DNA of 28,646 nt from a virus (lineage: Duplodnaviria > Heunggongvirae > Uroviricota > Caudoviricetes), in the IMG/VR virus record IMGVR_UViG_2925914267_000001, positions 1-28,646 of that record. One strand, 5' to 3'. The notes beneath the pieces were generated by a model. The model was not told the DNA's origin and ran no database searches. It saw only the letters and a list, made by a program, of their open reading frames with translations. Numbering within the stretch: the stretch's first letter is position 1; every line of letters starts with the position of its first letter. A program made the translations under genes and the position numbers. Shown here piece by piece: positions 1,768 to 23,234 of the stretch.

Positions 1768-2038
1768 GTATTCGTATTGAAATTGGCGAACGTTATGTCG
1801 TTACCAGTGACAGCTTTCAGTTTATTCTCCACGAGAAAAAGAGAGCGGAAGCGGTAAAAACGCCGGTCAGGAATGGCTGGCGGTGGTTGGTTATTATCCG
1901 AAATTAAGCCAGCTCGTTTCCGGCCTGATGCATCACGATATTCTGACCGGAAGCGCAAAGTCTTTTGCTGATTTAAACGCGCAGGTTGAGCAACTCAGCA
2001 GGCGTTGTTCAGAGGCTTTTGGCTCATATGGCCGTTAA
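1764..2038 (+). pseudogene. orf83-like early gene, reading frame broken by an apparent 1-nt deletion
   Basis: ATG 1764 with GGAG upstream stops at 1905-1907 after 47 codons; a second frame stays open from about 1811 to TAA 2036-2038 with no upstream start and ends in the usual overlap with the A start. The two parts join if one A is restored near 1848-1850. Confidence 0.55.
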
Positions 2039-4103
2039 AGCCTCCGGGCGTTTTGTCCCTCCTTCAGCATTTGCTGCAGGCACCGGTAAGGCGTTTACCG
2101 GTGCTTATGCATGGAACGCGCCACGCGAGGCCGTCGGGCGCGAAAGACCCCTTACACGTGACGAGATGCGTCAGGTGCAAGGTGTTTTATCCACGATTAA
2201 CCGCCTGCCTTACTTTTTGCGCTCGCTGTTTACTTCACGCTATGACTACATCCGGCGCAATAAAAGCCCGGTACACGGGTTTTATTTCCTCACATCCACT
2301 TTTCAGCGTCGTTTATGGCCGCGCATTGAGCGTGTGAATCAGCGCCATGAAATGAACACCGACGCGTCGTTACTGTTTCTGGCAGAGCGTGACCACTATG
2401 CGCGCCTGCCGGGAATGAATGACAAGGAGCTGAAAAAGTTTGCTGCCCGTATCTCATCGCAGCTTTTCATGATGTATGAGGAACTCAGCGATGCCTGGGT
2501 GGATGCGCATGGCGAAAAAGAATCGCTGTTTACGGATGAGGCGCAGGCTCACCTCTATGGTCATGTTGCTGGCGCTGCACGTGCTTTCAATATTTCCCCT
2601 CTCTACTGGAAAAAATACCGTAAAGGGCAGATGACCACGAGGCAGGCATATTCTGCCATTGCCCGTCTGTTTAACGATGAGTGGTGGACTCATCAGCTTA
2701 AAGGCCAGCGTATGCGCTGGCATGAAGCGTTACTGATAGCTGTCGGGGAGGTCAATAAAGACCGTTCTCCTTATGCCAGTAAACACGCCATTCGTGATGT
2801 GCGTGCGCGCCGCCAGGCAAATCTGGAATTTCTTAAATCGTGTGACCTTGAAAACAGGGAAACCGGCGAGCGCATCGACCTTATCAGTAAGGTGATGGGC
2901 AGTATTTCTAATCCTGAAATTCGCCGGATGGAGCTGATGAACACCATTGCCGGTATTGAGCGTTACGCCGCCGCAGAGGGTGATGTGGGGATGTTTATCA
3001 CGCTGACCGCGCCGTCAAAGTATCACCCGACTCGTCAGGTCAGAAAAGGCGAAAGTAAAACCGTTCAGCTTAATCACGGCTGGAACGATGAGGCATTTAA
3101 TCCAAAGGATGCGCAGCGTTATCTCTGTCGTATCTGGAGCCTGATGCGCACGGCATTCAAGGATAATGATTTACAGGTCTACGGTTTGCGAGTCGTCGAG
3201 CCACACCACGACGGAACGCCGCACTGGCATATGATGCTTTTTTGTAATCCACGCCAGCGTAACCAGATTATCGAAATCATGCGTCGCTATGCGCTCAAAG
3301 AGGATGGCGACGAAAGAGGAGCCGCGCGAAACCGTTTTCAGGCAAAACATCTTAACCGGGGCGGTGCTGCGGGGTATATCGCGAAATACATCTCAAAAAA
3401 CATCGATGGCTATGCACTGGATGGTCAGCTCGATAACGATACCGGCAGGCCGCTGAAAGATACTGCTGCGGCTGTTACCGCATGGGCGTCAACGTGGCGC
3501 ATCCCGCAATTTAAAACGGTTGGCCTGCCGACAATGGGGGCTTACCGTGAACTACGCAAATTGCCTCGCGGCGTCAGCATTGCTGATGAGTTTGACGAAC
3601 GCGTTGAGGCTGCACGTGCCGCCGCAGACAGTGGTGATTTTGCGTTGTATATCAGCGCGCAGGGTGGGGCAAATGTTCCGCGTGATTGCCAGACTGTCAG
3701 AGTCGCCCGTAGCCCGTCGGATGACGTTAACGAGTACGAGGAAGAAGTCGAGAGAGTGGTCGGCATTTACGCGCCGCATCTCGGCGCGCGTCATATTCAT
3801 ATCACCAGAACGACGGACTGGCGCATTGTGCCGAAAGTTCCGGTCGTTGAGCCTTTGACTTTAAAAAGCGGCATCGCCGCGCCTCGGAGTCCTGTCAATA
3901 ACTGTGGAAAGCTCACTGGTGGTGATACTTCGTTACCGGCTCCCACACCTTCTGAGCACGCTGCAGCAGTGTTGGATTTGATTGATATAGGGGTGGTTAG
4001 TTGGAATGATGCTGAGGTGATGACAGTTCTTAGGAAGAGATTAAAAGATTACTCACGGGAATTGATGGTATTCAAAGGAAGGGCTAGCCAACGCCCAATC
4101 TGA
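2028..4103 (+). CDS. A: replication initiation protein A (rolling-circle nickase)
   Basis: 691 aa from ATG 2028 (MAVKASGRFVPPSAF...); long match to recalled P2 gpA. The last roughly 50 codons differ from my recollection of P2 and sit in AT-rich DNA. Confidence 0.9.
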   Translation: MAVKASGRFVPPSAFAAGTGKAFTGAYAWNAPREAVGRERPLTRDEMRQVQGVLSTINRLPYFLRSLFTSRYDYIRRNKSPVHGFYFLTSTFQRRLWPRIERVNQRHEMNTDASLLFLAERDHYARLPGMNDKELKKFAARISSQLFMMYEELSDAWVDAHGEKESLFTDEAQAHLYGHVAGAARAFNISPLYWKKYRKGQMTTRQAYSAIARLFNDEWWTHQLKGQRMRWHEALLIAVGEVNKDRSPYASKHAIRDVRARRQANLEFLKSCDLENRETGERIDLISKVMGSISNPEIRRMELMNTIAGIERYAAAEGDVGMFITLTAPSKYHPTRQVRKGESKTVQLNHGWNDEAFNPKDAQRYLCRIWSLMRTAFKDNDLQVYGLRVVEPHHDGTPHWHMMLFCNPRQRNQIIEIMRRYALKEDGDERGAARNRFQAKHLNRGGAAGYIAKYISKNIDGYALDGQLDNDTGRPLKDTAAAVTAWASTWRIPQFKTVGLPTMGAYRELRKLPRGVSIADEFDERVEAARAAADSGDFALYISAQGGANVPRDCQTVRVARSPSDDVNEYEEEVERVVGIYAPHLGARHIHITRTTDWRIVPKVPVVEPLTLKSGIAAPRSPVNNCGKLTGGDTSLPAPTPSEHAAAVLDLIDIGVVSWNDAEVMTVLRKRLKDYSRELMVFKGRASQRPI

Positions 4104-4328
4104 TTATGTTTTGTAATGATAAGTTAATGCTGAATGAGTGGCTCGCGCATAACCTTGCGGGAAAAAGAGCATATTATGTACAGTTTTGAGGTTGGCTAGA
4201 GGGGATGGGCGAGATAGTTTGTGTTTGTGTGGGTTTGAGAAGTTTGATGCGCACATCAAAAATTGATACAACTGATTGAAAAAATGATAAAAAAGCTGTT
4301 AAATGCGTCAGTTTTCTAAGGGGGGAAG

Positions 4329-4454
4329 ATGAAAAAAATAACCAAGAGAAAAGAGAGAGAGATATTTTACGATCCTATTTACATCGTACAGGAAGAGATG
4401 TTGTATCTGCAGGGCGCTCTAAGATTAATCCTATTTCAAAAGCATCAAAAATAA
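4329..4454 (+). CDS. small basic ORF (41 aa) in the island leader, function unknown
   Basis: ATG 4329 follows a G-rich Shine-Dalgarno-like AAGGGGGGAAG; sequence MKKITKRKEREIFYDPIYIVQEEMLYLQGALRLILFQKHQK; AT-rich context; may be spurious. Confidence 0.25.
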   Translation: MKKITKRKEREIFYDPIYIVQEEMLYLQGALRLILFQKHQK

Positions 4455-4624
4455 ATCGTTGGATAAATGCGCAAATTAAAGATGGATTAAATTGCGAAAT
4501 AAGGAAAAATAGAGACCTTTTCCTTACTTTACCTAAAAATGAACTTTTCAAGTAATTACCATCGTACAATGCAAGCCATACAAACGATTAGGCATCTTAC
4601 GGGGCGGAAGATATTTAATAACCA

Positions 4625-5455
4625 ATGTTACCGTCTTTGTTTGTTGACTTTTCGAAGATTGAATATATTTCTGCATCTGCCGCATTGGTATTGACCGCGG
4701 AATTATCAAAATGGGATGATTCGGTAAGGCAACGCATTCGCCCAAAAGTGAAAACGTGGAATAAAAACATACTCTCTCAATTTGATGAGTTGGGTTTTTT
4801 TGACTTATTTAGAAATAAAGATAGTTTTGAGCTTGAAAAAGAAAAGGAACCAAGTAATATCCGTTTTGTTAAGTATATGAAAGGACATTTACATGATGAT
4901 GAAAAAACTCAGCATTTAAAAAAAGAAATAAAGCGTATTGTGGGAGAAGACCTTGGTAAATGGACTTTCCTATACAGTGGTTTGTCCGAAGCTATTACAA
5001 ATGTTGTTCATCATGCTTATCCAGATAATAAAGGCTATCATGAGCATGATAAAAAATGGTATTTAACTGCTTCATATGATAGTTCAAGTAGAATAATAAA
5101 AGTAGTGTTCTATGATCAAGGTATTACAATTCCTGGGTCTTTGCCGGAATCTAAACTCCATGAAAAGGTTTTAAATTACCTTTCGAAGTTACCGCTTGCA
5201 GAACGAAAAAGAGATGAACAATTGTTAAAGGCTGCAGTTGAAATCAAACGTTCTAGTACGGGGGAAGAGGATCGGGGTAAAGGCTTGCAGGACTTGTTGG
5301 AGTTCATAAAGCAACGTGGTGAAGGTTATCTTTCAATTATGAGTGGTAAAGGCCTTTACAAATACTCACAACATGATAAAAAATCTGAGGTAAAATCAGT
5401 AAGCTTCGCTCTGCCTGTTTGTGGTACACTTATAGTATGGAGTACAAAGCTATGA
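4625..5455 (+). CDS. GHKL (HATPase_c) kinase-like ATPase, RsbW/SpoIIAB-like
   Basis: 276 aa; N-box E122-AITN-VVHH-A131 (nt 4988-5017), G1-like D164-Q-G166, G2-like G218-K-G-L221 and G241-K-G-L244; AT-rich; stop overlaps the next start. Confidence 0.6.
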   Translation: MLPSLFVDFSKIEYISASAALVLTAELSKWDDSVRQRIRPKVKTWNKNILSQFDELGFFDLFRNKDSFELEKEKEPSNIRFVKYMKGHLHDDEKTQHLKKEIKRIVGEDLGKWTFLYSGLSEAITNVVHHAYPDNKGYHEHDKKWYLTASYDSSSRIIKVVFYDQGITIPGSLPESKLHEKVLNYLSKLPLAERKRDEQLLKAAVEIKRSSTGEEDRGKGLQDLLEFIKQRGEGYLSIMSGKGLYKYSQHDKKSEVKSVSFALPVCGTLIVWSTKL

Positions 5456-5751
5456 TTACTAGATTGGTTGCTAGCCTCATGAAAACATTGAAGATTGGTT
5501 CAGAGTTCTCGAAAGTTCCCAGAGGCCGCTATCGTACTGACGGGACAGCAAGTGGTGAACGGTTTAGAGAAGATTTCTTAAGAAAGCGTCTAAGCTTGCT
5601 TTCTGCTGGGGAAAAATTGCAGATAGTCATCGATGATGATGTCGAAGGATATGGTTCGTCTTTTTTGGTGGAGGGCTTTGCGGGCATGGTAAAATATGGA
5701 TATATGCATGCCAATGAGTTATTGTCTAAAATTGAAATTAAAATATACTAA
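5452..5751 (+). CDS. small STAS-like (DUF4325-like) protein, putative partner of the GHKL protein
   Basis: 99 aa from ATG 5452, which overlaps the upstream stop as ATGA, with GGAG at 5439-5442; C-terminal IVIDDDVEGYGSSFLVEGFAGMV resembles the STAS-like SSF-motif region. ATG 5437 is an alternative start. Confidence 0.45.
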   Translation: MITRLVASLMKTLKIGSEFSKVPRGRYRTDGTASGERFREDFLRKRLSLLSAGEKLQIVIDDDVEGYGSSFLVEGFAGMVKYGYMHANELLSKIEIKIY

Positions 5752-5822
5752 TCCTGATTTTGATTTCTATAAAAAGAAAATAGAACAATATATCAACGAG
5801 GCGCAGTTTAATTCGAAACGAT

Positions 5823-6485
5823 ATGAGCCAACAGTCGAATAATCCGATGTTTATTTTAGGTGAGGGTTCTGGTGAGTTCTCACCTAGTTTGCTTTTTATC
5901 AAGAAGGATAATGAAGAAGGCCTGAGTGCTACTCATGCAGTTAAGGATATTAATACGATAATTGAAGTAGCTAGTTCTAATATTGTTGATGCAATACGGC
6001 ATCCACCTGAAACGCCTATTTTATCGTCATCACTTATTACGGCTCTTATTAGTACTATTTGTGCGGCCACTGCTGCATTTGCATATAATAAAGTCCATTG
6101 GCGTTCTGTTGTTAAACGGGAGACTAAAACCAAACTCCTGGAGAGTATTTCAGATGTGGTTAATGAGTTGCGTTCTGATGCTATTAGTTATTGGTTGAAG
6201 GGGTATTCAAAAAAGTCGGCGAAGTCTCTCTTAGAAGAGGAAATGAGAATTAAGGCGAGTTTAAATATAATAAATTCGACTATAACAATATATGTTCAGC
6301 AAGAGTCGCGATGGAAAAGAAAGGATATTGAAGCTCAGTTAAGGGTTTTTCATGACGAACTTTTTGATATTATAACAGGTGATGATTTTGAGTCTCAGGC
6401 AAGGAAGCAGGATAAGGCAAAGGTTTCTGCTATTTCTACAAAGTGTGTGGCTTTTCGCGTTTTATTAAATACCATCAAGTTTTAA
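5823..6485 (+). CDS. single-pass membrane protein, putative effector, function unknown
   Basis: 220 aa; hydrophobic helix ILSSSLITALISTICAATAAFAY (about nt 6018-6086); charged K/E-rich C-terminal part; same strand and AT-rich composition as the two genes upstream. Confidence 0.5.
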   Translation: MSQQSNNPMFILGEGSGEFSPSLLFIKKDNEEGLSATHAVKDINTIIEVASSNIVDAIRHPPETPILSSSLITALISTICAATAAFAYNKVHWRSVVKRETKTKLLESISDVVNELRSDAISYWLKGYSKKSAKSLLEEEMRIKASLNIINSTITIYVQQESRWKRKDIEAQLRVFHDELFDIITGDDFESQARKQDKAKVSAISTKCVAFRVLLNTIKF

Positions 6486-6617
6486 GATAGCCATGCATGA
6501 GTTTGGTGCATGAAAATGCATGAGGTTTTACGAATTATTTTGGCTAAAATCAGCCTGCCCTGACTGGCTACGGCAGATATCATGCACCTGCATTAAAACC
6601 GCCCCATGAAGCGGGCG

Positions 6618-6636
6618 GGCGAGGCGGGGAAAGCAC
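6618..6636 (+). other. cos: cos site, 19-nt cohesive end GGCGAGGCGGGGAAAGCAC
   Basis: Exact match to the P2/186 cohesive-end sequence as I recall it; located between the cargo island and Q, as expected for the packaged genome termini. Confidence 0.8.
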
Positions 6637-6780
6637 TGCGCGCTGGCGGTGGTGCTGATTTTATTTTTTCAGCGTCTGAGCGCGTCGTGAAGGCGCTTAG
6701 TCTGCCCGTTGAGGCGTTGGTGTGTCTGCGGGGTGTTTTGTGCGGTGGTGAGCGTGTGAGCGCGTGATGACGGGGGTGTA

Positions 6781-6807: not shown

Positions 6808-7841
6808 TCAGCCGTTGTCAGTGTCCAGTGAGTAGTTTTTAAAGCGGATGACCTCCTGACCGAGCCAGCCGTTTATCTCGCGGATCCTGTCCTGTAGCGG
6901 GATAAGCTCATTGCGGACAAAGACCTTTGCCACTTTCTCAATATCACCCAGCGACCCGACGTTCTCCGGCTTGCCGCCCATCAACTGAAAGGGGATGCGG
7001 TGCGGCGTCCAGCAGGTCAGCGGCGCTGGCTTTTTTGATATTAAAAAAATCGTCCTTCGTTGCCACTTCACTGAGCGGGATAATTTTAATGCCGTCGGCT
7101 TTCCCCTGCGGGGCATAGAGAAACAGATTTTTAAAGTTGTTGCGGCCTTTCGACTTGACCATGTTTTCGCGAAGCATTTCGATATCGTTGCGATCCTGCA
7201 CGGCATCGGTGACGTACATGATATATCCGGCATGAGCGCCGTTTTCGTAATACTTGCGGCGGAACAGCGTGGCCGACTCATTCAGCCAGGCAGAATTAAG
7301 GGCGCTGAGATATTCCGGCAGGCCGTACAGCTCCTGATTAATATCCGGCTCCAGCAGGTGAAACACGGAGCCGGGCGCGAAGGCTGTCGGCTCGTGAAGG
7401 ACGGCACCCACCAGTAAACATCCTCCTCCACGCCACGGCGGGTATATTTTGCCGGTGAGGTTTCCAGTCTGATGACCTTACCGGTGGTGCTGTAACGCTT
7501 TTCCAGAAACGCATTACCGAACACCAGAAAATCCAGCACAAAGCGGCTGAAATCCTGCTGGAAAGCCACGGGTGCGGAATAAACGTTGAAGCCAGAATAT
7601 TACGTTTGACGTAAATCGGTGAGCTGTGATGTACGGCAGCACGCAGGCTTTTTGCCAGACCGGTAAAGCTGACCGGTGGCTCATACCATCTGCCGTTACT
7701 GATGCACTCGACGTAATCCAGAATGTCACGGCGGTCGAGTACCGGCACCGGTTCACCAAAGGTGAATGCCTCCATTTTCGGGGCGCTGGCGGTCATTTTT
7801 TTTGCCGCAGGTTGCGGTGTTTTCCCTTTTTTCTTGCTCAT
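6808..7841 (-). pseudogene. Q: portal protein gene Q, frame interrupted at three points
   Basis: Four consecutive - strand ORF pieces (7338-7841, 7282-7569, 6944-7411, 6808-7281) together cover a 344-aa P2 Q-like protein. Breaks are near 7560 and 7396 (1-nt deletions in G runs on the + strand) and near 6998-7006 (net +1). Confidence 0.8.
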
Positions 7842-18548: not shown

Positions 18549-19846
18549 CAGTGAAATACTACGCCATTCTGACTAATCAGGGCGCAGCACGGCTGGCTAA
18601 CGCGACGATGCTTGGCAGTAAGCTGAATCTGACGCAAATGGCCGTTGGTGATGCGAATGGTGTCTTGCCGACACCAGACCCGGCACAGACAAAACTGATT
18701 AATCAGAAACGCATTGCACCGCTGAATCTTCTGAGTGTTGACCCGAACAACCAGAGCCAGATTATTGCGGAGCAAATCATCCCTGAGAACGAGGGCGGAT
18801 TCTGGATCCGTGAGATTGGGCTTTATGATGATGAAGGCGTACTCATTGCGGTGGCCAACTGCCCGGAAACGTACAAACCGCAGTTACAGGAAGGCAGTGG
18901 TCGTACCCAGACTATCCGCATGATTCTGGTTGTCACGAATATCGAAGCCATCACGCTGAAAATCGACCCGTCGGTGGTACTGGCGACCCGTAAATATGTG
19001 GATGATGAAGTCCTGGAATTAAGGCTGTATGTGGATGACCAGATGAGAAACCACATTGCCGCACAGGATCCTCATACCCAGTATGCACAGAAACATAATC
19101 CGACATTTACCGGAGAACCAAAAGCCCCGACGCCTGCCGCAGGAAATAACACCACGCGGATTGCGACCACTGAGTTTGTTCAGGCCGCTATTACCGCTCT
19201 GATTAACGGCGCGCCAGCCACGCTGGACACACTGAAAGAAATTGCCGCAGCCATTAACAATGACCCGAAATTCAGCACCACCATTAACAATGCGCTGTCA
19301 GGTAAGCAGCCACTGGATGAGACGCTGACTCATTTGAGCGGAAAGGATGTTGCCGGCCTTCTCGCATACCTTGGTTTGGGAGAAGGCTCTGTATTACCCG
19401 TTGGTGTGCCTGTTCCGTGGCCTTCAGCCACACTGCCAACAGGCTGGCTGAAATGCAACGGGGCGGCATTTTCTGCTGAAGAATACCCGGAACTGGCAAA
19501 GGCTTACCCGACAAATATATTGCCTGATTTACGTGGTGAATTTATTCGTGGCTGGGATGACGGGCGCGGAGTGGACAGTAGCCGGACGTTGTTGTCGTGG
19601 CAAAAAGGCTCTTATCTGGTTCAGGAAGCCAATATATCACCCGACAGCGTGGTGCAGTTTTCGGTAAACGACATTGCCCTGCTGGGATGGGATAAAACTG
19701 AAACCAATTCAGATATTCTCAGAGCGAAAAGTATACCTACAGAACATATCTGGAACCCCGTTCCAGTGGGAGCCTGGGGGATTCAGTATCTGGGTTATGC
19801 AAGGCCACGTAACATTGCATTTAACTACATCGTAAGGGCTGCATGA
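18545..19846 (+). CDS. H: tail fibre protein H: constant N-terminal part plus the currently expressed variable C-terminal part
   Basis: 433 aa; N-terminus MTVKYYAILTNQGAARLANA... is P2 gpH-like; C-terminal part has a phage tail-collar-like stretch (PVGVPVPWPSATLPTGWLKCNG); the crossover site lies inside the gene at 19359-19384. Confidence 0.85.
   Translation: MTVKYYAILTNQGAARLANATMLGSKLNLTQMAVGDANGVLPTPDPAQTKLINQKRIAPLNLLSVDPNNQSQIIAEQIIPENEGGFWIREIGLYDDEGVLIAVANCPETYKPQLQEGSGRTQTIRMILVVTNIEAITLKIDPSVVLATRKYVDDEVLELRLYVDDQMRNHIAAQDPHTQYAQKHNPTFTGEPKAPTPAAGNNTTRIATTEFVQAAITALINGAPATLDTLKEIAAAINNDPKFSTTINNALSGKQPLDETLTHLSGKDVAGLLAYLGLGEGSVLPVGVPVPWPSATLPTGWLKCNGAAFSAEEYPELAKAYPTNILPDLRGEFIRGWDDGRGVDSSRTLLSWQKGSYLVQEANISPDSVVQFSVNDIALLGWDKTETNSDILRAKSIPTEHIWNPVPVGAWGIQYLGYARPRNIAFNYIVRAA
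19359..19384 (+). repeat. left gix/hix-like 26-bp crossover site TTCTCGCATACCTTGGTTTGGGAGAA
   Basis: 12-2-12 structure like hix/gix; 14 bp (TTGGTTTGGGAGAA) are perfectly inverted at 21309-21322. Confidence 0.7.
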
Positions 19847-20463
19847 TGAGCAAGAAAACCATGACTACAGCGGTGCTGAATGAATCGCGGCTGGCAACAG
19901 TTGCAGGAGAGGTTGTTGTCCACAGCTACGATAATAAGACGCGGGAATACCTTTGCACGTCAACCGAATATCTGGCTGTGGGCGTTGGCCTTCCTGCACA
20001 TTCATGCACTGATGCCCCCGGGGAAAGGCGGGCTGGTTATGCAATTTGCCGCACAGCCGACCTGACCGCGTGGGAGTACGTGCCGGACCATCGGGGTGAG
20101 ACAGTCTATAACACAGAAACCCGTGAGGCAGCAGAAATCACCACTCCGGGGGATTACCCTGAAAACACAACCACTGTCGCCCCGTTAACGCCATACGATG
20201 AATGGGATGGTGAGAAATGGGTGACAGATACTGAGGCACAGCATAGCGCCGCAGTAGGCGCGGCAGAAACACAGCGACAGTCACTGATTGATACTGCAAT
20301 GGCTTCCATTAATCTGATTCAACTGAAATTGCAGGCCGGGCGAAAACTGACGCAGACAGAAACCACCCGGCTTAACGTCGTGCTGGATTACATTGACGCG
20401 GTGACGGTAACTGATACCAGCACCGCGCCGGATATCAATTGGCCTGCTCCCCCGGAGGCGTAG
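19843..20463 (+). CDS. G: tail fibre assembly chaperone (Tfa), expressed orientation
   Basis: 206 aa; start overlaps the H stop; sits inside the invertible segment, like U of Mu. Confidence 0.75.
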   Translation: MMSKKTMTTAVLNESRLATVAGEVVVHSYDNKTREYLCTSTEYLAVGVGLPAHSCTDAPGERRAGYAICRTADLTAWEYVPDHRGETVYNTETREAAEITTPGDYPENTTTVAPLTPYDEWDGEKWVTDTEAQHSAAVGAAETQRQSLIDTAMASINLIQLKLQAGRKLTQTETTRLNVVLDYIDAVTVTDTSTAPDINWPAPPEA

Positions 20464-20853: not shown

Positions 20854-21335
20854 TTAATACCCCAGCGCGATAAAACAACAATCTTCGGTGCCCTCTCCGG
20901 ATGGCGACCAGTTCTGAATACTGATATGCGTTCTGCTGGCAATACGCACATTCATCGCGGCATTGTAGCCAGATGTTCCACGGTTTCCGGTCGCAAACAA
21001 GCCTGCATAGGGAAAAGCAAATGGTAAGGCATATCCAGCATCAGCTCCCTTTTGTGTTGCCACCGTTCCCCACTGCAACATAAGTTTCACCGGGTTTCCT
21101 GTCGTCGCAATGCATGGAATGTAGATGTAGCCATTACCTGACATCATTGACCTGAAGCTGTCTAAATCCAGTAACTTCGAGGCATTATCTGCTCCAACAT
21201 CTCGTGTTGCAGCGGTCCCTAACTGGAGCGCATTTCGGAAGGCTGATACATCAGAAATATCAGATCCATTAGCCGATTTCTGCATAGCTCTGGAGGCTCT
21301 ATTTATCGTTTCTCCCAAACCAACGTTTATGAAAA
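20854..21335 (-). CDS. alternative tail-fibre C-terminal segment (H' variable part) with no start of its own; expressed only after inversion
   Basis: - strand frame open from the right gix-like site to stop 20854; reads ...FINVGLGETIN... across the crossover, sharing GLGE with H at the left site. Confidence 0.7.
21310..21335 (+). repeat. right gix/hix-like 26-bp crossover site TTCTCCCAAACCAACGTTTATGAAAA
   Basis: Inverted partner of the left site; resembles hixL TTCTTGAAAACCAAGGTTTTTGATAA; lies 55 bp upstream of the invertase start. Confidence 0.7.
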
Positions 21336-21390
21336 TGCAGAGATAACGGGCAAGTGGCATCATCTCCGGTTTTTATTCAGGGGGATGCTC

Positions 21391-21984
21391 ATGCTTATTG
21401 GCTATGTACGCGTGTCAACAAATGACCAGAACACGGAATTGCAGCGTAACGCGCTGGAGTGCGCAGGATGTGAGCTGATTTTTGAGGATAAAATCAGCGG
21501 CACGAAGTCCGACAGGCCGGGGCTGAAAAAACTGCTCAGAACATTATCGGAAGGTGACACTCTGGTAGTCTGGAAGCTGGACCGGCTGGGGCGTAGTATG
21601 CGGCATCTGGTCATTCTGGTTGAGGAGCTGCGCGAACGCGGCATTAATTTTCGCAGCCTGACGGATGCCATTGATACCAGCACGCCGATGGGGCGTTTTT
21701 TCTTTCATGTGATGGGTGCCCTGGCTGAAATGGAGCGAGAACTCATTGTCGAGCGGACACGCGCCGGACTGGAGGCGGCCAGAGCCAAAGGTCGTATTGG
21801 TGGCAGACGTCCGAAACTCACCGCGAGTGAGTGGGAGCAGGCCGGGCGGTTGCTGGCTGCAGGGGAATCACGTCAACGCGTGGCACTGATTTTTGATATT
21901 GGCCTGTCCACGCTCTATAAAAAATTCCCCGCCTCAGTGACAAAAAATAAATTGTGTCATCCCTTAGCCAACCGGGACAAATAG
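21391..21984 (+). CDS. serine recombinase, DNA invertase of the Gin/Cin/Pin/Hin family
   Basis: MLIGYVRVSTNDQNTELQRNAL... with the catalytic Ser in YVRVSTNDQ; C-terminal helix-turn-helix-like region; strong similarity to Gin as I recall it. Confidence 0.85.
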   Translation: MLIGYVRVSTNDQNTELQRNALECAGCELIFEDKISGTKSDRPGLKKLLRTLSEGDTLVVWKLDRLGRSMRHLVILVEELRERGINFRSLTDAIDTSTPMGRFFFHVMGALAEMERELIVERTRAGLEAARAKGRIGGRRPKLTASEWEQAGRLLAAGESRQRVALIFDIGLSTLYKKFPASVTKNKLCHPLANRDK

Positions 21985-22043: not shown

Positions 22044-23234
22044 ATGAGTGACTATCATCACGGCGTGCAGGTGCTGGAGATTAACGACGGCACCCGCGTC
22101 ATTTCCACCGTATCCACTGCCATTGTCGGCATGGTCTGCACGGCCAGCGATGCGGATGCGGAAACCTTCCCCCTCAATAAACCGGTGCTGATTACCAATG
22201 TGCAGAGCGCAATTGCAAAGGCTGGTAAAAAAGGCACGCTGGCGGCGTCGTTACAGGCCATCGCCGACCAGTCAAAACCGGTCACCGTTGTCGTGCGTGT
22301 GGAAGACGGCACCGGTGACGACGAGGAAACGAAACTCGCGCAGACCGTTTCCAATATCATCGGCACCACCGACGAAAACGGTCAGTACACCGGACTGAAA
22401 GCCCTGCTGGCGGCAGAGTCGGTAACCGGTGTTAAACCGCGTATTCTCGGCGTGCCGGGACTGGACATCAAAGAGGTGGCTGTTGCACTGGCATCAGTCT
22501 GTCAGAAGCTGCGCGCTTTCGGGTATATCAGCGCATGGGGCTGTAAAACCATTTCCGAGGTGAAAGCCTACCGCCAGAATTTCAGCCAGCGTGAGCTGAT
22601 GGTCATCTGGCCGGATTTCCTCGCATGGGATACGGTCACCAGTACCACCGCCACCGCGTATGCCACCGCCCGTGCGCTGGGTCTGCGCGCTAAAATCGAC
22701 CAGGAGCAGGGCTGGCATAAAACGCTGTCCAATGTCGGGGTGAACGGTGTTACCGGCATCAGCGCATCCGTCTTCTGGGATTTGCAGGAGTCCGGCACCG
22801 ATGCTGACCTGCTTAACGAGTCAGGCGTCACTACGCTGATTCGCCGCGACGGTTTCCGCTTCTGGGGTAACCGTACCTGCTCCGATGACCCGCTGTTCCT
22901 CTTTGAAAACTACACCCGCACCGCGCAGGTGCTGGCCGACACGATGGCTGAGGCGCACATGTGGGCGGTGGACAAGCCCATCACTGCAACGCTGATTCGC
23001 GACATCGTTGACGGCATCAATGCCAAATTCCGTGAGCTGAAAACAAACGGCTATATCGTGGATGCGACCTGCTGGTTCAGCGAAGAATCCAACGATGCGG
23101 AAACCCTCAAGGCCGGAAAACTGTATATCGACTATGACTATACCCCGGTGCCTCCTCTTGAAAACCTGACCCTGCGCCAGCGTATTACCGATAAATACCT
23201 GGCAAATCTGGTCACCTCGGTTAACAGCAATTAA
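22044..23234 (+). CDS. FI: contractile tail sheath protein
   Basis: 396 aa; matches P2 gpFI. Confidence 0.9.
   Translation: MSDYHHGVQVLEINDGTRVISTVSTAIVGMVCTASDADAETFPLNKPVLITNVQSAIAKAGKKGTLAASLQAIADQSKPVTVVVRVEDGTGDDEETKLAQTVSNIIGTTDENGQYTGLKALLAAESVTGVKPRILGVPGLDIKEVAVALASVCQKLRAFGYISAWGCKTISEVKAYRQNFSQRELMVIWPDFLAWDTVTSTTATAYATARALGLRAKIDQEQGWHKTLSNVGVNGVTGISASVFWDLQESGTDADLLNESGVTTLIRRDGFRFWGNRTCSDDPLFLFENYTRTAQVLADTMAEAHMWAVDKPITATLIRDIVDGINAKFRELKTNGYIVDATCWFSEESNDAETLKAGKLYIDYDYTPVPPLENLTLRQRITDKYLANLVTSVNSN

Follow-up and report, generated by a model that had tools for sequence, protein, structure and literature searches.

In the VapKSC system, the STAS-GHKL kinase VapK phosphorylates VapS, a STAS protein that, when not phosphorylated, keeps the PIN toxin VapC bound and inhibited (Chambers, Rani, Min, Villa, Corbett, EMBO J 2026, PMC13373217). 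VapS has a short C-terminal region, its phosphomimetic form S48E fails to neutralise VapC, and the vapKSC operon provides ∼2-log protection against phage Bas42 (PMC13373217). In the CapK–CapS pair, the HTH-STAS-GHKL kinase CapK is switched on by single-stranded DNA (ssDNA) and adds a phosphate to a conserved Ser of the STAS repressor CapS, and capKS pairs control varied downstream immune operons (PMC13373217). Here we analyze a three-gene cassette that resembles these systems in its first two genes but carries a different third gene. The cassette lies in a stretch of 28,646 nucleotides (nt) from a virus of the Caudoviricetes (IMG/VR record IMGVR_UViG_2925914267_000001, positions 1 to 28,646), which as a whole we call the window. 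All three genes are on the plus strand: gene 1 (4329 to 5455) encodes a GHKL-type kinase (K), gene 2 (5452 to 5842) a STAS-like protein (S) and gene 3 (5823 to 6485) a single-pass membrane protein of 220 amino acids (aa), the main subject of this study. Our analyses show that gene 3 closes a strictly conserved cassette and make it a candidate effector.

An E. coli vapKSC locus encodes proteins of 297 aa, 116 aa (DUF4325) and 203 aa (PIN). Like it, the cassette consists of three tightly spaced genes in the same order, beginning with a GHKL kinase and a small DUF4325 STAS protein that has an invariant Ser and a short C-terminal extension; operons of both kinds are often found close to other defense genes. 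The cassette differs in its third gene, which encodes a single-pass protein with a predicted cytoplasmic four-helix bundle rather than a VapC/PIN nuclease, and in its kinase, which is ∼80 residues longer and has a basic N-terminal extension. Because the PIN toxin is absent, the cassette should not be filed as VapKSC proper, and membrane-protein variants are not mentioned in the VapKSC paper (PMC13373217). By analogy, however, we infer that the cassette works like VapKSC.

The CapK–CapS pair also combines a GHKL kinase with a STAS substrate that has a conserved phospho-Ser, and there too phosphorylation is proposed to disrupt an interaction between proteins. However, CapS is a transcriptional repressor with a winged helix-turn-helix (wHTH) DNA-binding domain, whereas gene 2 matches DUF4325 only, the rest of the protein being a tail of ∼30 aa, and capKS genes precede varied multigene immune operons rather than one fixed small membrane protein. 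The third point of comparison is with the partner-switching modules SpoIIAB/SpoIIAA and RsbW/RsbV: the gene 1 model is nearest to SpoIIAB, and gene 2 is STAS-like with a Ser at the start of its second helix. Yet the cassette has neither a sigma factor nor a PP2C phosphatase, its similarity to these proteins is below the thresholds of the curated families, and it is cargo of a mobile element, whereas the SpoIIAB and RsbW modules serve developmental and stress regulation.

Gene 3 and its protein family

The initial annotation, made from the sequence of the window alone, described a 220-aa protein at 5823 to 6485 with one strongly hydrophobic helix at about aa 66 to 88, a long charged C-terminal region and no recognizable motif, and suggested that it is a membrane effector ending a defense cassette. 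The ATG-to-stop open reading frame (ORF) was confirmed exactly, and 14 of 5,426 complete E. coli genomes have an annotated protein 99 to 100% identical to it. The start at 5823 is backed by conserved first residues in homologs, although some RefSeq records begin at Met9. A word-indexed search found 29 gene 3 clusters in Enterobacterales, and a profile search returned 241 cluster representatives at E ≤ 0.001, 156 of them at E ≤ 1e-10. Compared with an 81%-identical homolog from Raoultella, the ratio of nonsynonymous to synonymous substitution rates (dN/dS) is ∼0.07 for the whole protein, with 0.26 for the N-terminal 60 residues and 0.03 for the C-terminal domain; all are rough values since dS is near saturation. 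Gene 3 is a real conserved gene under strong purifying selection and not a chance ORF.

Its Kyte–Doolittle hydropathy profile rises to a single peak, at aa 66 to 84, where the maximum over 19 residues is 1.78, and the segment from aa 65 to 88 is free of Lys, Arg, Asp and Glu and rich in Ser, Thr and Ala. Thus, gene 3 has one membrane helix, as had been proposed, but a moderately rather than strongly hydrophobic one. Across the family, the median hydropathy maximum is 2.07; among 87 members, 84 reach at least 1.6 and 82 have exactly one peak. In these 87 proteins, the 15 residues before the helix contain a mean of 0.57 Lys and Arg and the 15 residues after it a mean of 3.7. This excess of positive charge after the helix places the bundle in the cytoplasm, on the same side of the membrane as the kinase and STAS proteins. 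Hydropathy and charge distribution give one helix with the C terminus predicted to be inside.

By these criteria, and with an AlphaFold2 model built on a 19-sequence alignment (mean predicted local distance difference test [pLDDT] score of 73.5), the protein divides into three parts. Residues 1 to 65 (5823 to 6017) form a variable, net-acidic N-terminal region that is predicted to be periplasmic and is mostly of low confidence, with pLDDT below 50 over aa 1 to 42 and a helix at aa 43 to 59. The transmembrane helix at aa 66 to 88 (6018 to 6086), assigned from hydropathy and column composition, is part of a long modeled helix spanning aa 65 to 126 that extends from the membrane into the cytoplasm. 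The remainder, aa 89 to 220 (6087 to 6482), is a predicted cytoplasmic four-helix bundle, in which the long helix is followed by helices at aa 130 to 160, 163 to 185 and 198 to 219 with pLDDT values of ∼85 to 95. The C-terminal region is thus confidently predicted to be a membrane-anchored four-helix bundle. It is indeed charged, with 25 Lys and Arg and 18 Asp and Glu among its 132 residues, but according to the model it is not a loose tail.

The absence of a recognizable motif likewise proved true only with respect to the libraries searched, as the family has invariant features of its own. Small residues occupy positions 74, 78, 81, 82, 84 and 85 in 82 to 100% of the 87 sequences and form a stripe along one face of the membrane helix; conservation of such a face fits helix–helix packing better than a passive anchor. 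At the cytoplasmic end of the helix stands a boundary motif, [FY]xFNxxHW[KR], with N89 in 95% and W93 in 89% of the same sequences. Residues Y123-W124 (nt 6189 to 6194), at the turn after helix 1, are invariant. The T185-G-D-D-F-E-S loop between helices 3 and 4 (nt 6375 to 6395) is the most conserved loop of the family, with T185 in 99% and F189 in 100% of members and position 191 Ser in 84% and Thr in 13%. From the helix topology of the model, the YW and TGDDFES motifs would both lie at the membrane-distal tip of the bundle, where the STAS protein or the kinase may dock. The N-terminal region, in contrast to these elements, is poorly conserved; it varies from 33 to 119 aa among the 87 members and is only ∼10 aa long in a remote member, gp39 of Marinobacter phage AS1. 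That it can shrink to this extent argues against periplasmic sensing as the core function of gene 3.

Searches of gene 3 against NCBIfam and against the PADLOC models gave no match, and neither gene 1 nor gene 3 has a Pfam family. A Pfam RsbRD_N match of gene 3 (E 0.09) was taken as chance and a PHROGs tail-fiber/lysozyme match (E 0.008) as spurious. The gene 3 profile found nothing below E 0.19 among PDB sequences, and thus no solved relative, and fold searches returned generic four-helix bundles only. Neither a tblastn search of gene 3 against 50,697 phage records nor a megablast search of the cassette against phage records gave a match. Within the 5′ end of gene 3, at 5856 to 5887, there is also a terminator-like hairpin with a 14-pair stem and a following T-rich run, which could be either chance or an internal attenuator.

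The kinase and STAS partners and the conserved gene order

The initial annotation had taken genes 1 and 2 to encode products of 276 and 110 aa. These are frameshift truncations, and the true products have 376 and 129 aa. In the window, gene 1 contains indels at 4349 (−1), 4538 (−2) and 4639 (−1), leaving an open remnant of 276 aa at 4625 to 5455, and gene 2 is frameshifted by a 1-base insertion at 5740, leaving a remnant of 110 aa.

The intact gene 1 product, as delimited by alignment to the E. coli locus L001, is RefSeq WP_032254602 (“ATP-binding protein”); it begins with a basic N terminus, continues with a putative STAS-like segment and ends in a SpoIIAB-like GHKL kinase domain. Its library matches are all below threshold: 17 bits for HATPase_c_2 against a cut-off of 27.4, and 13 to 15 bits for the NCBIfam RsbW and SpoIIAB models against cut-offs of 135 to 155. 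Nevertheless, the residues expected of a GHKL ATPase are invariant in the family, namely E222, N226 and H230 of the N-box, D264-x-G266 of the G1 box and G318-x-G320 of the G2 box. The AlphaFold2 model has a predicted template modeling score of 0.78, and its best Foldseek matches in the PDB are SpoIIAB structures (1TID, 1L0O and 1TH8; E ∼4e-4), followed by GyrB ATPase domains. Against a VapK family profile of 16 sequences, hhalign aligned the gene 1 family over 187 columns with a probability of 88% and an E value of 3e-6 (the VapK and VapS sequences were taken from the appendix of PMC13373217). By this profile comparison, gene 1 is a remote homolog of VapK. The segment FVDFSKIEYISASAALVLTAEL (aa 103 to 127), a strand followed by a helix in the AlphaFold2 model, is STAS-like by eye; there is no profile match over it, and the hhalign match begins at aa 134. 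W130, between the two, is invariant in the gene 1 family.

Gene 2, delimited from RefSeq, Pfam and alignment, encodes a “DUF4325 domain-containing protein” (WP_032254618) composed of a STAS-like domain and a conserved C-terminal extension of ∼30 aa. It matches Pfam DUF4325 with an E value of 3e-5 and 24.1 bits, just above the cut-off of 23, and VapS matches the same family with 2.7e-17 and 62.7 bits. Among 11 homologs, Ser69 and Ser70 (YGSSFL) are invariant and the tail is conserved, and Ser69 aligns with Ser48, the phosphoacceptor of VapS. On these sequence grounds, gene 2 is a remote VapS homolog. Profiles of gene 1 and gene 2 gave no relevant match among PDB sequences. Gene 2 (L001 7357 to 7743) also matches the last ∼100 positions, and only these, of the 441-position phrog_5816, to which PHROGs assigns no function; some phages may encode a STAS-like module fused to a larger protein, possibly a kinase.

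Genes 2 and 3 overlap by 20 nt when the true end of gene 2 is used, and the arrangement of the three genes is constant. Across ∼50 loci, which come from Gamma- and Betaproteobacteria, from phages and from metagenomes, genes 1 and 2 precede gene 3 in the same order wherever there is upstream DNA. Loci of distant homologs were retrieved with a 17-sequence gene 3 alignment. Overlapping or abutting K, S and gene 3 reading frames were found in E. coli, Erwinia, Enterobacter, Yersinia, Serratia, Klebsiella, Methylotenera, Nitrosomonas, Methylococcaceae, Shewanella and Colwellia. Another 28 loci came from viruses and metagenomes: all 26 with upstream DNA contain gene 2, the remaining two beginning at a contig edge, and every one with ∼750 bp or more of upstream DNA contains gene 1. 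Between the E. coli and Nitrosomonas-type cassettes, sequence identity is ∼50% for gene 1, 55 to 65% for gene 2 and 25 to 30% for gene 3.

The surroundings of the cassette, on the other hand, differ. Copies in Erwinia, Serratia and an enterobacterial contig reside in P2-like prophages. The Enterobacter copy is outside P2, beside Tn3 and an AAA_15/21 ATPase gene; that of Yersinia adjoins a gene for a TIR protein; the Klebsiella copy is within a lambdoid prophage; and that of Methylotenera is in an island with a methylase and an integrase. Outside the P2 hotspot, neighbors of the cassette include TIR, AAA_15/21, restriction–modification-like and integrase genes. In two of these settings, the Klebsiella lambdoid prophage (L025/L026 8410 to 8796) and the Enterobacter chromosomal island (L007/L008 6978 to 8003), a P2-type portal gene, as a fragment or a copy, accompanies the cassette, which suggests transfer together with flanking P2 DNA.

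More distant triads reveal that the third position varies. Here, relatives of gene 1 with 23 to 30% identity are followed by a STAS-like gene and then by a gene for a small protein with an N-terminal membrane helix. Such triads occur in Marinobacter phage AS1, on plasmids of Novosphingobium, Vibrio and Acinetobacter, and in a Helicobacter prophage. AS1 gp39 and the Novosphingobium plasmid ORF can be assigned to the gene 3 family as remote members (hhalign E values of 1e-5 and 8e-5, respectively, with shuffled controls giving at least 0.1). The former belongs to genes 41 to 39 of AS1 (L028 3336 to 5262), a remote kinase–STAS–single-pass triad beside a Cro/CI-type regulator in an isolated temperate phage, and thus the module is also carried by phages outside the P2 family. 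The latter is an unannotated ORF right after the STAS-like gene of plasmid pABRDHK234 (L029 ∼4770 to 5300), with an N-terminal membrane helix and the strings AIDYF and LTGGNFQES. A similar triad is catalogued as P4-hotspot candidate system 69, with the labels “HATPase_c” and “DUF4325” and the remark “1 TM in protein 3” (Rousset et al. 2022, Tables S1B and S5A, PMC9122126). It is built of the same three parts, and both its kinase (E 3e-11) and its STAS protein (E 2e-15) match the cassette profiles, but its third protein has no detectable sequence similarity to gene 3. Indeed, hhalign comparisons of gene 3 with the third proteins of the P4, Vibrio, Helicobacter and Acinetobacter triads were not significant, architecture alone being in common. 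The third slot can therefore hold a PIN nuclease (in VapKSC), a gene 3 family member or another small single-pass protein. A constant kinase–STAS pair followed by a variable third gene is a pattern that fits an effector slot.

The prophage hotspot and catalogued defense systems

The window is a P2-like prophage. The replication endonuclease gene gpA (1986 to 4103, plus strand; from the ORF list) forms the left border of a hotspot, and the portal gene gpQ (6808 to 7841, minus strand) forms its right border; portal and terminase genes occupy the minus strand from 6808 and are followed by capsid, tail and sheath genes. The portal gene, identified from its ORFs and from the RefSeq “phage portal protein” of L001, is split into three ORFs by indels at 7004, 7394 and 7560. 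Between gpA and the cos/portal region lies an island of 2.4 kb (4100 to 6500) with ∼36% G+C in a background of ∼55%, which in intact E. coli copies consists of three co-oriented genes encoding 376, 129 and 220 aa. The G+C fraction drops from ∼0.54 to 0.36 at the 3′ end of gpA and is already low from about 4000, and the recombination junction of the cassette appears to be inside gene A. The last ∼35 gpA codons (∼3990 to 4103) are in the zone of falling G+C, and the RefSeq equivalent is labeled “replication endonuclease, missing C-terminus.”

The P2/P4-type cos region adjoins the hotspot at 6584 to 6645. Its sequence, …CATTAAAACCGCCCC…GCGGGCGGGCGAGGCGGGGAAAGCACTGCGCGC, recurs nearly unchanged in the P4 and P2 loci that Rousset et al. 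cloned (Table S2A), confirming that the cassette is in the cos-proximal hotspot. The P2 hotspot next to cos holds diverse antiphage systems (Rousset et al. 2022, PMC9122126).

Compared with an E. coli prophage that is 98 to 99.7% identical, the first 12,606 nt of the window contain ∼20 small indels, mostly in short homopolymer runs (for example at 394, 1848, 4349, 4538, 4639, 5740, 7004, 7394, 7560, 8520, 9828, 11541 and 12501). They break cassette genes 1 and 2 and ORFs upstream of gpA, and also essential phage genes, among them those for portal and terminase. As essential genes are split just as the cassette genes are, and as the cassette is 99.7% identical to reference copies, the indels are probably uncorrected long-read sequencing errors and not prophage decay. 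A 220-aa ORF at 291 to 953, which has no Pfam match, is an artefact of the same kind, in which a deletion at 394 fuses two early genes that encode 56 and 166 aa in the reference prophage.

The cassette was previously known only as a candidate in two published tables. The P2-hotspot entry “hypothetical + DUF4325 + hypothetical” (WP_032254602 + WP_032254618 + WP_032254601; Rousset et al., Table S5A, PMC9122126) is this cassette, and DefensePredictor lists the gene 3 product, WP_032254601.1, with a mean log-odds of 7.6 as a “predicted novel defense gene” (Table S10). Neither the P2 cassette nor P4 system 69 is among the systems that Rousset et al. cloned and tested; both are catalogue entries only. 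In PADLOC-DB, none of the three cassette proteins had a match at E ≤ 1. A literature search found nothing relevant on DUF4325, nothing tying partner switching to antiphage activity and no text naming the cassette accessions.

Several catalogued systems were compared with the cassette directly. Rst_RT-nitrilase-Tm, Rst_2TM_1TM_TIR and Rst_Hydrolase-3Tm also end short P2/P4-hotspot operons with small proteins that have one to a few membrane helices and are assumed to act by abortive infection, but these proteins show no similarity to gene 3 (hhalign E 0.04 to 0.7) and their partners are RT-nitrilase, TIR and hydrolase proteins. Identity with Rst_3HP, a P2-hotspot system whose three genes lack a clear domain, was rejected, as the proteins in Table S2A differ (334, 350 and 226 aa). 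DefensePredictor reported a link to PD-Lambda-6, a low-coverage HHblits match covering 28% of the query, which was not reproduced with the PADLOC models.

The window also has an invertible, Gin/Cin-type host-range switch (20854 to 21984), placed at the second of the loci that vary in P2-like phages. It consists of an inverted C-terminal segment of a tail fiber (Gp53-like_C, minus strand) beside a Resolvase/HTH_7 DNA invertase and sits between a tail-fiber assembly gene (19843 to 20463) and the sheath gene (22044 to 23234).

A proposed mechanism and its alternatives

Genes 1 and 2 match the kinase and the STAS antitoxin of VapKSC, in which the toxin gene comes third, and on this basis we read gene 3 as the effector. 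Specifically, we judge the chances to be slightly better than even that gene 3 is the toxin of a VapKSC-type kinase–STAS–effector system, restrained by the STAS protein, freed by phosphorylation of Ser69, acting through oligomerization in the inner membrane and borne by a P2-like prophage as cargo of its gpA/portal hotspot. In an uninfected cell, gene 2 would bind the cytoplasmic bundle of gene 3 and keep it inactive, its likely contact being the membrane-distal tip with the YW and TGDDFES motifs. Infection or DNA damage would activate the gene 1 kinase, for which the trigger may be ssDNA, by analogy with CapK and VapK. The kinase would then phosphorylate Ser69 of gene 2, causing it to let go of gene 3. 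Once free, gene 3 could self-associate via the small-residue face of its membrane helix and damage the inner membrane, so that the cell would be arrested or killed before the phage cycle completes. We infer the binding of the STAS protein to gene 3, the phosphorylation, the trigger, the toxicity and the membrane damage from the likeness to these systems. The suggestion of a membrane effector that ends a defense cassette is accordingly upheld in part: gene 3 is the last gene of a strictly conserved cassette found in defense hotspots and islands, it has VapKSC-like partners and it occupies a variable third slot, while its role as an effector is held at the same slight advantage.

Several points weigh against this proposal. 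Gene 3 has no recognizable toxic domain in Pfam, NCBIfam or PADLOC searches, and the four-helix bundle is a generic fold that is also typical of sensor and signaling domains. A pore made from a single membrane helix requires oligomerization. The homology between gene 1 and VapK is remote and is confined to the linker and the GHKL part; as the putative STAS segment lies outside the alignment, the ssDNA-binding aromatic residue (F54 of VapK, W68 of CapK) could not be mapped onto gene 1. For gene 2, the likeness to VapS rests on common Pfam membership, a direct profile-to-sequence comparison not being significant. Genes 1 and 2 are frameshifted in the window, and if the frameshifts were real, this copy would be dead or deregulated. 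Finally, the literature yielded no experiment on the cassette, only candidate lists.

The generic, sensor-like fold and the fast-evolving N terminus of gene 3 would also suit a membrane-tethered sensor or scaffold, which would hold the kinase–STAS pair at the site of phage DNA entry, the inner membrane, or use its four-helix bundle to signal a disturbed envelope, the output being phosphorylation of a host-encoded target. We consider this unlikely, though likelier than the other alternatives. The operon would then carry no effector, and in the characterized relatives it is the kinase that senses and the third gene that is the toxin (PMC13373217). Moreover, the N-terminal region is nearly absent from AS1 gp39, and what the family conserves is the membrane helix and the cytoplasmic tip.

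The same tip raises the question of whether gene 3 could itself be a kinase substrate or adaptor, phosphorylated at Thr185 or Ser191 and modulating a host membrane machine (transport, division or secretion) without forming a lesion. The conserved T185, G186, F189, E190 and S191 are at an exposed position on the distal end of the bundle, and the kinase is of the Ser/Thr-phosphorylating SpoIIAB type. However, the substrates of the SpoIIAB-type kinases characterized to date are STAS partners, the canonical invariant Ser is present at the right place in gene 2, and nothing points to a host partner, so that we regard this alternative as improbable.

Small prophage membrane proteins can block superinfecting phages. 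Gene 3 might accordingly be regulated cargo, such as a superinfection-exclusion or lysis-type membrane protein, placed under the control of genes 1 and 2 as a DNA damage-responsive transcriptional switch, since CapK and CapS are homologous kinase–STAS pairs that govern downstream operons. The composition of gene 2 makes such a switch more improbable still: at 129 aa it consists of a STAS domain and its short tail, lacks a wHTH domain and resembles VapS, not CapS. Furthermore, whereas capKS genes precede many different operons, the third gene of the cassette is fixed in architecture and overlaps gene 2. That gene 3 is a functionally unrelated neighbor, a moron gene of a hotspot of the kind that often holds several independent systems (PMC9122126), is very improbable and close to refuted by synteny, as the three genes co-occur in the same order at every locus examined, in distant taxa and between differing flanks, with genes 2 and 3 overlapping.

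Returning to gene 3 as an effector released from a STAS antitoxin, a broader reading is possible, which we advance tentatively and would rate at somewhat less than an even chance. In it, the kinase–STAS–single-pass triad is a widespread, uncharacterized defense family, with hundreds of clusters in Gamma-, Beta- and Alphaproteobacteria, in temperate phages, in P2/P4 hotspots and on plasmids. A phospho-switched STAS antitoxin would release a new membrane toxin, whose four-helix bundle would be the regulatory handle and whose small-residue helix face would drive pore-forming oligomerization. If so, the VapK/VapS module would be a general trigger with swappable effectors, and gene 3 would represent a new fold family of membrane effectors, one without a Pfam entry.

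Kinase-controlled STAS antitoxins were reported only in 2026 and with one type of effector, the PIN nuclease. If gene 3 is a second, the kinase–STAS pair would be a modular trigger, able to drive killing mechanisms of very different kinds. An unannotated conserved family of 241 cluster representatives would gain a function, as would entries in the P2/P4 hotspot catalogue and one gene that machine learning had predicted to be a novel defense gene. The cassette would also offer a simple three-gene system, from an E. coli prophage, for learning how a soluble antitoxin restrains a membrane toxin.

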